A program made the position numbers and the translations under genes. DNA of 64,000 bases from Pocillopora damicornis (taxonomy: Eukaryota), in the NCBI RefSeq assembly GCF_003704095.1, contig NW_020844765.1, forward strand, positions 1 to 64,000, written 5' to 3'. The notes beneath the pieces were generated by a model. It was given only the letters and a program-made list of their open reading frames with translations, was not told where the DNA came from and made no database searches. Of this stretch, positions 49,501 through 51,363 are shown one piece after another (the first letter of the stretch is position 1; each line of letters starts with the position of its first letter).

Positions 49501-51363
49501 GGACGAGGCGTCAATAAATCACTGATTGTAAGAGATGAGAAGCACTATGCGTGTAAAATGTCTCAAGTAAGATCGAAACACAATGAGCCAAGCAGGACTC
49601 GAGCCTGAATCTCCCAATCCAGAGTTTTACGCGTTTACCATCCAACTCCCTAATTTCCTTCAAGAGACTTGATCAACGTAGTATTTGGATGTCTGAGTCC
49701 CTGATACAAGCTAAATTCTTCAAAATTTGGTACACTTTCTCAGGTCCAGTAGTCACTCGTAACTCTTTCTGTGCATCTGCACTCTCGTAGATATTAAGCC
49801 TCACATATTCAAAGCTAAACTTGATCTTCATTAATGACGTCCAAATATTAACGTGGTGCTTTACTTTACTCAGTGTAGTATTGATTTTTTTGGTTGTTAT
49901 TTTTTGCCTTCCAGAACATTCCGACATCATTTCTTGTCCAATAGAGGGATCTCCATTATATCTTGCCCCCGAAACAGTGACAAGACAACCAATTGGTAGG
50001 GAAGTAGACATTTGGGCGTGCGCTGTGATATTCTATACAATGCTGGTTAGTATTCGAACCTCAATCAGTACTTTAACAAAATTCTTGATTGGATTGGTTA
50101 TTACCAGCCCGATTTAAGCACTTCTATGACAGTGTACGTGTCATGCTTGTAATTGGATAGTGCAGCAGGATAGTTGACACGTCATTTCTGTGTAAGTGGG
50201 CAGTGCGTGCGTCATGCTTACTCGTTGCCAATTTAGCCGAGTTAGCTGTCTTTGTTTATGAAAGCGTATGGCTGATGTCTTATATCTTTCTCATATTTCG
50301 CCAAAGTTTTGATTAATTGGTAGCAGGGCTTCATCTCGTCTAATTCTGTCTTTAATATTACTCGCAATTAACAAATCGGACTCCCGCTTCGCTGTCGCCC
50401 GATTTTGTCAATCATTCGTATGATTACAGACCAAATTGAACTCCATTTGTAGTCCTATTACCATTATAAATCGAGACGAGTGCGGATGTGTAAGATTTCT
50501 TCTTATTTAGCTCTTTCTCCTTCAAATCTCGGTCATGAAAAGTTGGGCTTGTTCGTTGGACTAGAAGAAATCGTCTTTCATTTTAGACTGACTACTGTAA
50601 AATAGGAGGAAATGTTTATAAATAAAATATGATTTTATGTAGTTTTTGGATAACACTTGCATGATTTGTAGCATTTCCTACTCCACGTATAGGCATACAT
50701 TAAATCAGTAAAGATACCTTTGATAGTTTGTCAACTGATTAATGTAATTCCGTTGCCGTTGTCTTCAATATCTGGTTGATACTGCCCTGAACATATCTTA
50801 ACTTATTTTAATACCAAAATGTTTCTTTGAAGGCTGGTTACCCTCCTTTCTGGAGCACAAATCGAGGTGAACTCTTCGGAGTTATTGCGCTTGGAAAATA
50901 TAATTTTCCAGATCAAGAGTGGAAATCTATATCTGATGGTGCTAAGCGGCTGCTAAAAGGCATGGTAAGAGATCTTGATCGAATCTTGATTCCAAGCTTT
51001 GCGGTAATATGTGATGATTACTATTGCAATTTTTTTCGACGGCTTGCCGAACGGTTATTCATGTAATAATTACTAATGCCGGGCGATAGAATCTTAACTT
51101 CGACCTCTTGACATACGCTCTTACTTCTTTCTTAACAGCTCATGGTCGATCGAAATGAACGAGTGACAGCGACAGAACTTGTGAAAGATCCGTGGACCCA
51201 AAATAGAAAGTTATCTACGGCTCATCGGAAGGGGACTCTGGATCATCTAAGTGCTTTTAACGCCAAAAGGAAGCTCAGGGGGGCTGTGTACACAATCTTT
51301 GCCATGAAGAGAATGATGGAAAACCCAGAACCTTTGCCTCTGACAAATGGTGTCAAATCATAG
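46550..51363 (+). CDS. CaMK-like pseudokinase, tandem paralog. Exons 46550-46711, 48762-48977, 49090-49195, 49915-50045, 50833-50964, 51139-51363
   Basis: Same first five intron positions and phases as the upstream kinase, ORF open throughout. GQGSFSEI and FAVK retained, but RRNIRPEK replaces HRDLKPEN and SGFG replaces DFG. Confidence 0.88.
48339..48660. mobile_element. Element starting with a long near-perfect palindrome (48339-48474) in pseudokinase intron 1
   Basis: TTAATGTATAGTCCCGAGGGA..GAGTCCTGATGTTTCCC / GGGAAACATCAGGACTC..TCCCTCGGGACTATACATTAA. Confidence 0.7.

Follow-up and report, generated by a model that had tools for sequence, protein, structure and literature searches.

An ancient and conserved pair of genes, encoding a hub-less kinase and a hub-less pseudokinase of the CaMKII type, is real and, it appears, undescribed. 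Both genes lie in the window, the stretch of 64,000 nucleotides analysed here from the coral Pocillopora damicornis (contig NW_020844765.1, positions 1 to 64,000). The asymmetry of the pair is invariant and differs from the one proposed in an earlier sequence-only reading, which had set an R-x-x-T motif at the T286-equivalent site of the pseudokinase against K-x-x-T in its active twin. The pseudokinase is confirmed at the sequence level; the R-versus-K difference is ordinary lineage drift.

Gene models and transcripts

Gene 1 (40110..44671, plus strand) was modelled with seven exons (40110-40271, 41892-42107, 42589-42688, 43005-43135, 43378-43509, 43891-44066 and 44353-44671) and encodes a hub-less CaMKII-like kinase of 411 aa with intact catalytic motifs. 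It sits 1.9 kb upstream of gene 2 (46550..51363, plus strand), a hub-less CaMKII-like pseudokinase of 323 aa encoded by six exons (46550-46711, 48762-48977, 49090-49195, 49915-50045, 50833-50964 and, as final coding exon, 51139-51363). Every intron of both genes has GT-AG borders, and the five introns of gene 2 are identical to those of gene 1 in position and phase. RNA contigs from four runs of four studies matched 10 of the 11 modelled junctions exactly, all five in gene 2 and five of six in gene 1, when support was pooled over runs that individually miss some joints. At the last junction of gene 1, the contigs placed the joint 2 bases beyond the model. The splice of gene 2 intron 2 was confirmed in three additional RNA runs; a fourth run, its kind unrecorded, reads through. 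Both genes were found in the same bulk RNA runs. The gene 1 protein is 100% identical to P0319 (NCBI, Pocillopora), the gene 2 protein 99.1% identical to P0251 of P. meandrina.

Intron 3 of gene 2 (49196..49914, plus strand) is recurrently retained in RNA contigs, which enter or span it in at least six of seven RNA runs (X1, X2, X5, X6, X12 and, at low depth, X7) and meet a stop a few codons into the read-through. In contrast, intron 2 was without RNA-contig cover in three runs. The database fragments P0001 and P0010 are consistent with the retention of intron 3, and P0004 skips exon 2. Regulated retention of intron 3 is possible. Two short high-copy repeats within introns (44276-44311 and 48340-48620), the latter with inverted-repeat character, draw many unrelated RNA contigs.

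No Pfam match to the hub (PF08332) was obtained on P0319, P0251 or their orthologs, which matched kinase Pfam families only, and gene 2 terminates in its helix-bearing exon. The four PF08332 matches of the genome are restricted to contigs C1708 (~195000-210000) and C2447 (~88000-98000), which carry two canonical hub-bearing CaMKII genes with an RxxT of their own. In the CaMKII gene on C2447, regulatory segment, linker and hub fall within a single open frame of 219 aa. The tail of gene 1 (44353-44671) is without Pfam match; a basic-x-x-Ser-Tyr motif near residue 323, present in 7/7 orthologs checked including Nematostella, is a candidate second phosphorylation site.

Catalytic loss in gene 2 and descent of the pair

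The HRD Asp of gene 2 is replaced by Asn, and its DFG motif reads GFG. The degenerate catalytic and Mg-binding loops (48972..49176, plus strand), which are split by intron 2, carry the changes D135N, K137R, N140K and D156G. N135, R137 and G156 are found in all 49 near-full-length gene 2 sequences, together with Lys or, in 12 of the 49, Thr at position 140, and positions 135/137/156/140 are D/K/D/N in 51/51 gene 1 and 18/18 CaMKII rows. These sets were drawn from 79 collected gene 2 sequences, of which shorter and duplicate records were dropped, and from 88 collected for gene 1; many of the records are near-identical, and the counts are therefore not independent. A pseudokinase is defined by the loss of at least one of VAIK Lys, HRD Asp and DFG Asp (accessible text of Hammaren et al.). 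Gene 2 lacks two of the three and retains the Lys (K42), along with the Gly loop, E60 and the hinge Glu. The earlier description of gene 2 as catalytically dead is upheld by the fixed N135 and G156. At the position of the HRD His (48972-48974), this genome and the P. damicornis record P0252 have Arg, most orthologs have His and a few have Tyr or Gln, a sign that the dead site has drifted further.

Compared with locus L016, dN/dS was 0.063 for gene 2 over 323 codons (dS 1.1) and 0.096 for gene 1 over 284 codons (five of seven exons), each value stemming from one pairwise comparison with dS above 1. The reading frame of gene 2 is intact, its transcripts are spliced and it is under purifying selection. 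A pseudogene is excluded by the dN/dS of 0.063.

The kinase domain of gene 2 is closest to CaMKII by sequence (2BDW, E 4.8e-71) and by fold. In a quick tree of 75 rows, midpoint-rooted and with long branches, no bootstrap and no CASK rows, both twins and three hub-less kinases formed a clade apart from CaMKII (SH-aLRT 99). Each twin's clade contains an anemone, and the duplication therefore predates the coral-anemone split. Gene 1, gene 2 and a PP2C-family gene occur in the same order in L016, and L014 contains the tail of gene 1 followed by the start of gene 2; these were the two informative loci among 12, the rest being too short or, for L023, unrelated. In six genera (Pocillopora, Stylophora, Oculina, Orbicella, Porites and Acropora), the accession numbers of the twins follow one another directly or differ by a few; the Montipora records agree solely in the length of their chromosome, and the Actinia records lie on separate short contigs.

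The genome contains three additional paralogues without a hub (L025, C2862:572589-575711; L026, C27:7800-10922; L028, C1457:222203-225322), a small undescribed kinase family. Their HRD and DFG are intact, and the frames read of these loci lack a recognisable CaM helix motif. The protein P0147 (ENA) is a family member with RxxT in which HRD is kept and DFG is changed to SFG, possibly an independent or intermediate catalytic loss. The ESM Atlas returned generic CaMK-group clusters only, and in a search of 50% representatives, crowded by multi-kinase proteins, the best 150 included a single cluster of gene 2.

Regulatory segment and docking groove

The T286-equivalent site of gene 2 (51220..51240, plus strand) comprises Ala at -5, Arg at -3 (51226-51228), Thr (51235-51237) and Leu at +1. 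The regulatory segment of gene 1 (43975..44064, plus strand) has Leu at -5 (43975), Lys at -3 (43981-43983), the T286-equivalent Thr (43990-43992), a predicted CaM helix and Gly at the T305 position (44047); its Lys and Thr lie in exon 6 (43891-44066). With HMMER, the last exon of gene 2 aligned to CaMKII chains (best E 6e-9) without a gap between the His that precedes the Arg and the end of the CaM helix. In a multiple alignment the Thr of both twins fell on residue 286 of the CaMKII P0164, whose K42, D135, D156 and T286 agree with alpha numbering. Since the Thr of gene 2 occupies the position homologous to CaMKII T286, its RxxT is inherited homology, and a chance motif is ruled out on the same ground. 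The two motifs stand as the earlier reading gave them, in register with CaMKII T286.

Conservation of RxxT among orthologs, suggested at the time as a check, was high: R(-3) and Thr are present in 62 of the 63 gene 2 sequences (out of 79) that include the segment and in 7/8 cluster representatives. The sole exception, the Actinia model P0009, is without 13 residues across the RxxT, which may be a true loss or a faulty model. P0008, with 55% overall identity, retains Arg, Thr and Leu(+1) amid a surrounding stretch of 36% identity, so the motif of gene 2 is constrained.

The segment is included in 67 of the 88 gene 1 sequences. Thr is present in all 67, and position -3 is Arg in 48 and Lys in 19; Arg prevails likewise among the cluster representatives (17/20). 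Of the named records, those of Pocillopora, Stylophora, Oculina and Orbicella carry Lys, and those of Porites, Montipora, Acropora and the anemones Nematostella, Actinia and Actinostola carry Arg. The four Lys genera group in one clade of the tree (SH-aLRT 99), which also includes one Arg sequence. As Lys is limited to this stony-coral subclade, Arg is ancestral in gene 1. On these sequences, RxxT is ancestral to both twins, and the Lys of gene 1 is a lineage-specific substitution, uninformative on a division of labour. The pair was present, its gene 2 having lost the catalytic residues, at a time when both twins carried RxxT. The contrast of R and K is real within the subclade of the four Lys genera and absent elsewhere.

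The earlier reading held that the dead paralog keeps the better substrate consensus, a view contradicted by the prevalence of Arg in gene 1 and by the consensus itself. At -3 the extended CaMKII consensus accepts Arg as well as Lys, and at -5 it calls for a hydrophobic residue (accessible text of Ozden et al., bioRxiv 10.1101/2020.10.25.354241). Position -5 is Leu or Ile in 67/67 gene 1 sequences and Ala or Thr in 60/63 of gene 2. CaMKII rows have a hydrophobic -5 and Gln at -2 in 17/17, where gene 2 has Ala/Thr and Lys. Gene 1 of pocilloporids has Glu at -2, which may weaken its site. Judged by the Ozden consensus, the site of the active twin is the better one in most species.

The predicted calmodulin-binding helix of gene 2 (51256..51315, plus strand) begins with Phe at 51256, has a net charge of +6 over 20 residues and keeps a T305-equivalent at 51292-51294. 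Residues 290-312 are 98.6% identical across six coral genera, compared to 85.5% for the whole domain and 92.5% for the segment in gene 1. F293, R297, K298 and L299 are invariant and the net charge ranges from +4 to +6; both twins deviate from the CaM anchor pattern at L308, where they have Ala. The helix noted earlier is retained as the most conserved part of the protein, and CaM binding itself is predicted by homology. Position 305 is Thr in 49/49 gene 2 and Gly in 51/51 gene 1 sequences; T305 is absent in 4/18 CaMKII rows.

The acidic helix-D groove residues E96, F98, E99 and D100 (48855..48875, plus strand) are kept in gene 2, as is E236-W237 (50917..50922, plus strand); gene 1 has Tyr at 236. 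In CaMKII, the groove residues E96, E99, E139, W214 and E236 bind partners, as stated in the available part of Ozden et al. (bioRxiv 10.1101/2020.10.25.354241). Among the 49 gene 2 sequences, position 96 is Glu in 39 and Asp in 10, and the others are largely fixed (E99 46/49, D100 49/49, E139 49/49, W214 48/49, E236 46/49). Gene 1 has D96, D99, G100 and Y236 in 51/51 and also keeps E139. I205 is changed to Thr in 35/49 and D238 to Lys in 48/49 gene 2 sequences; with part of the -5 pocket altered, the groove may therefore have changed specificity.

The AlphaFold model of the gene 2 ortholog P0251 (99% identical; pLDDT 87.6) contains a helix at 280-310. Its best match was autoinhibited CaMKII (2BDW, TM 0.91, rmsd 1.7), and the open, CaM-bound 2WEL fitted worse (rmsd 22.5), a closed form that reflects the default fold of the family and an alignment containing CaMKII rows. 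An AlphaFold model of gene 1 from a 23-row alignment was unusable (pLDDT 41.6). The complex prediction for the gene 1 core (1-272) with the full-length gene 2 ortholog, run without alignments or folded controls, scored 0.00 in two runs and favours neither an interaction nor its absence.

Possible roles of the pseudokinase

Both twins share with CaMKII a regulatory segment with the T286 position and a predicted CaM helix, and gene 2 in addition has R-x-x-T286, T305 and the groove. They differ from CaMKII in the absent hub and, in the quick tree, in their separate clade, with the CaMKII genes elsewhere in the genome; gene 2 is also without the intact catalytic residues (N135, K/T140 and G156 in 49/49). 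Another relative in design is CASK, in which a CaMKII-like domain without DFG Asp is followed by a CaM-binding helix. The solved Ca2+/CaM-CASK kinase-domain complexes 9M5Y and 9M6G, as far as the entries were accessible, are a precedent for a CaM-bound kinase domain of this kind. CASK regulates T305/306 phosphorylation of CaMKII (PMC2910593 among the sources, accessible in part). Phosphorylation by CASK needs no cations, and in STRAD-alpha basic residues stand in for the cation when ATP is bound (Hammaren et al., accessible text). However, CASK belongs to the multidomain MAGUKs and retains some catalysis. Gene 2 is a stand-alone domain of 323 aa with kinase Pfam families only and without the HRD Asp as well; its score to CASK (E 7e-55) is below that to CaMKII, and it has all five introns in common with gene 1. 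A CASK fragment is ruled out by these common introns and the absence of MAGUK domains. The vertebrate CaMKv binds CaM and belongs nearer CaMKI. It resembles gene 2 as a stand-alone CaMK-group pseudokinase with a non-catalytic role, according to the accessible part of a review, but represents another lineage, set apart from gene 2 by description. In LKB1-STRAD-alpha a dead paralogue-like domain regulates an active kinase, the template for the proposed partnership in trans of gene 1 and gene 2. Additional background is contained in the accessible parts of PMC4718504, PMC3608901 and PMC13727655.

We see about an even chance that gene 2 is a hub-less binding module gated by Ca2+/CaM, acting as scaffold or calmodulin sink. 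At rest, the regulatory helix is predicted to cover the kinase lobe of the same protein, the arrangement known from autoinhibited CaMKII; Ca2+/CaM would bind the helix and lift it, exposing a groove that would hold partners with basic motifs without turnover, like the laboratory mutant D135N of CaMKII. Phosphorylation at the T286 or T305 position may tune gene 2. Any phosphate on its RxxT would have to come from a different enzyme, a part for which canonical CaMKII, with the hub-bearing genes on C1708 and C2447, qualifies as well as gene 1 does. D135N is the standard inactivating mutation of CaMKII, and such domains still bind partners with affinities of 39 nM to 1.1 uM (Ozden et al., bioRxiv 10.1101/2020.10.25.354241, accessible text). 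The fixed dead site, the purifying selection, the helix with 98.6% identity, the kept groove and the confident closed model of P0251 support the module. On the other side, conservation of the helix could reflect packing or a ligand other than calmodulin, and the stable tandem and the R(-3)/T/L(+1) kept in P0008 fit a substrate in trans equally well.

The sequence-only reading had proposed that gene 2 may be a trans-substrate or a calmodulin-trapping partner of gene 1; in its full form, gene 1 would phosphorylate the T286-equivalent of a dedicated partner and make it trap calmodulin. We consider this rather unlikely. In its favour, R(-3) and Thr are kept in 62/63 sequences of an enzyme incapable of self-phosphorylation, the tandem order recurs in L016 and L014, the accession numbers of the twins lie close together in six genera, the same bulk RNA runs contain both genes and gene 1 keeps the acidic 96/99 and E139. 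Yet the R/K contrast is lineage-specific (Arg in gene 1 48/67), gene 2 departs at -5 (Ala/Thr) and -2 (Lys) from the hydrophobic residue and Gln of CaMKII (17/17), the hub that organises trans-phosphorylation in CaMKII is absent from both genes, and the two hub-bearing CaMKII genes are alternative writers. Tandem duplicates can also adjoin without interacting, and the PP2C-family gene is equally syntenic in L016. Phosphorylation of gene 2 by gene 1 is possible but unsupported. T286 of CaMKII is phosphorylated by a catalytic domain within the same holoenzyme (Rellos et al., PMC2910593, accessible text). Improbable, too, is a split switch of an adjacent hub-less writer, with catalysis kept and T305/306 and E236 lost, and a dead reader that would store calcium history through trans-phosphorylation, having kept T286, T305, CaM helix and groove in corals and anemones.

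It is also unlikely that gene 2 is a calmodulin sink switched by a canonical hub-bearing CaMKII or another basophilic kinase, with phospho-T286 raising and phospho-T305 blocking CaM binding. Such a switch would agree with the two hub- and RxxT-bearing CaMKII genes, with both Thr being kept in gene 2 (T305 49/49; Gly in gene 1 51/51) and with the roles of T286 and T305 in the accessible text of Rellos et al. (PMC2910593). However, T305 is buried in the CaM interface (PMC2910593, accessible text), maybe kept for binding alone, and it is missing in 4/18 CaMKII rows. Two further readings are less likely than these phosphorylation-tuned ones. A constitutively closed scaffold, in which the helix is structural or bound to a non-calmodulin partner and calcium is no gate, is quite improbable: the high-confidence closed model of P0251, the CaMKII segment solved in complex with actinin (7B55, entry accessible in part) and Ala in place of L308 in both twins are in its favour, but a basic hydrophobic helix conserved above the rest of the protein speaks against it, and the acidic groove would be unneeded. 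Weak cation-independent catalysis of the CASK type is very improbable. The Gly loop, K42, E60 and hinge Glu are present and Lys140 could replace the cation, as basic residues do in STRAD-alpha, but the catalytic base is Asn in 49/49, position 140 is Thr in 12/49 and the HRD His varies. Nucleotide binding by gene 2 is plausible, turnover is not.

The literature search, with subscription journals mostly outside its scope, retrieved no description of a coral or anemone CaMKII-like pseudokinase or of this pair, and six gene identifiers had no literature matches. The terms 'pseudokinase' and 'coral' do not occur in the accessible text of the CaMKII evolution papers PMC12443042 and PMC9120016. In databases, orthologs of gene 2 are entered as alpha-like or gamma-like CaMKII kinases, and coral expression studies may therefore misread a dead enzyme as active. 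The pair is a natural experiment on how far CaMKII function is structural: gene 2 carries D135N as in the laboratory-killed CaMKII, lacks a hub and has persisted from a time before the coral-anemone divergence. If it binds calmodulin and partners, it would be a minimal, purifiable model of non-catalytic CaMKII function.

Other genes were noted in the window. The PP2C-family phosphatase gene at 52823-55345 (plus strand), syntenic in L016, encodes a mitochondrial-type leader and is probably a pyruvate dehydrogenase phosphatase. A single-exon short-chain dehydrogenase (PF00106) lies at 33833-34624 (plus strand). By eye, PLAT-like and channel-like exons at 57728-63150 (minus strand) form a candidate polycystin-1-like (PKD1L) gene, and candidate ULK4-like pseudokinase exons at 1856-4320 (plus strand) show an apparent local duplication around assembly gaps.
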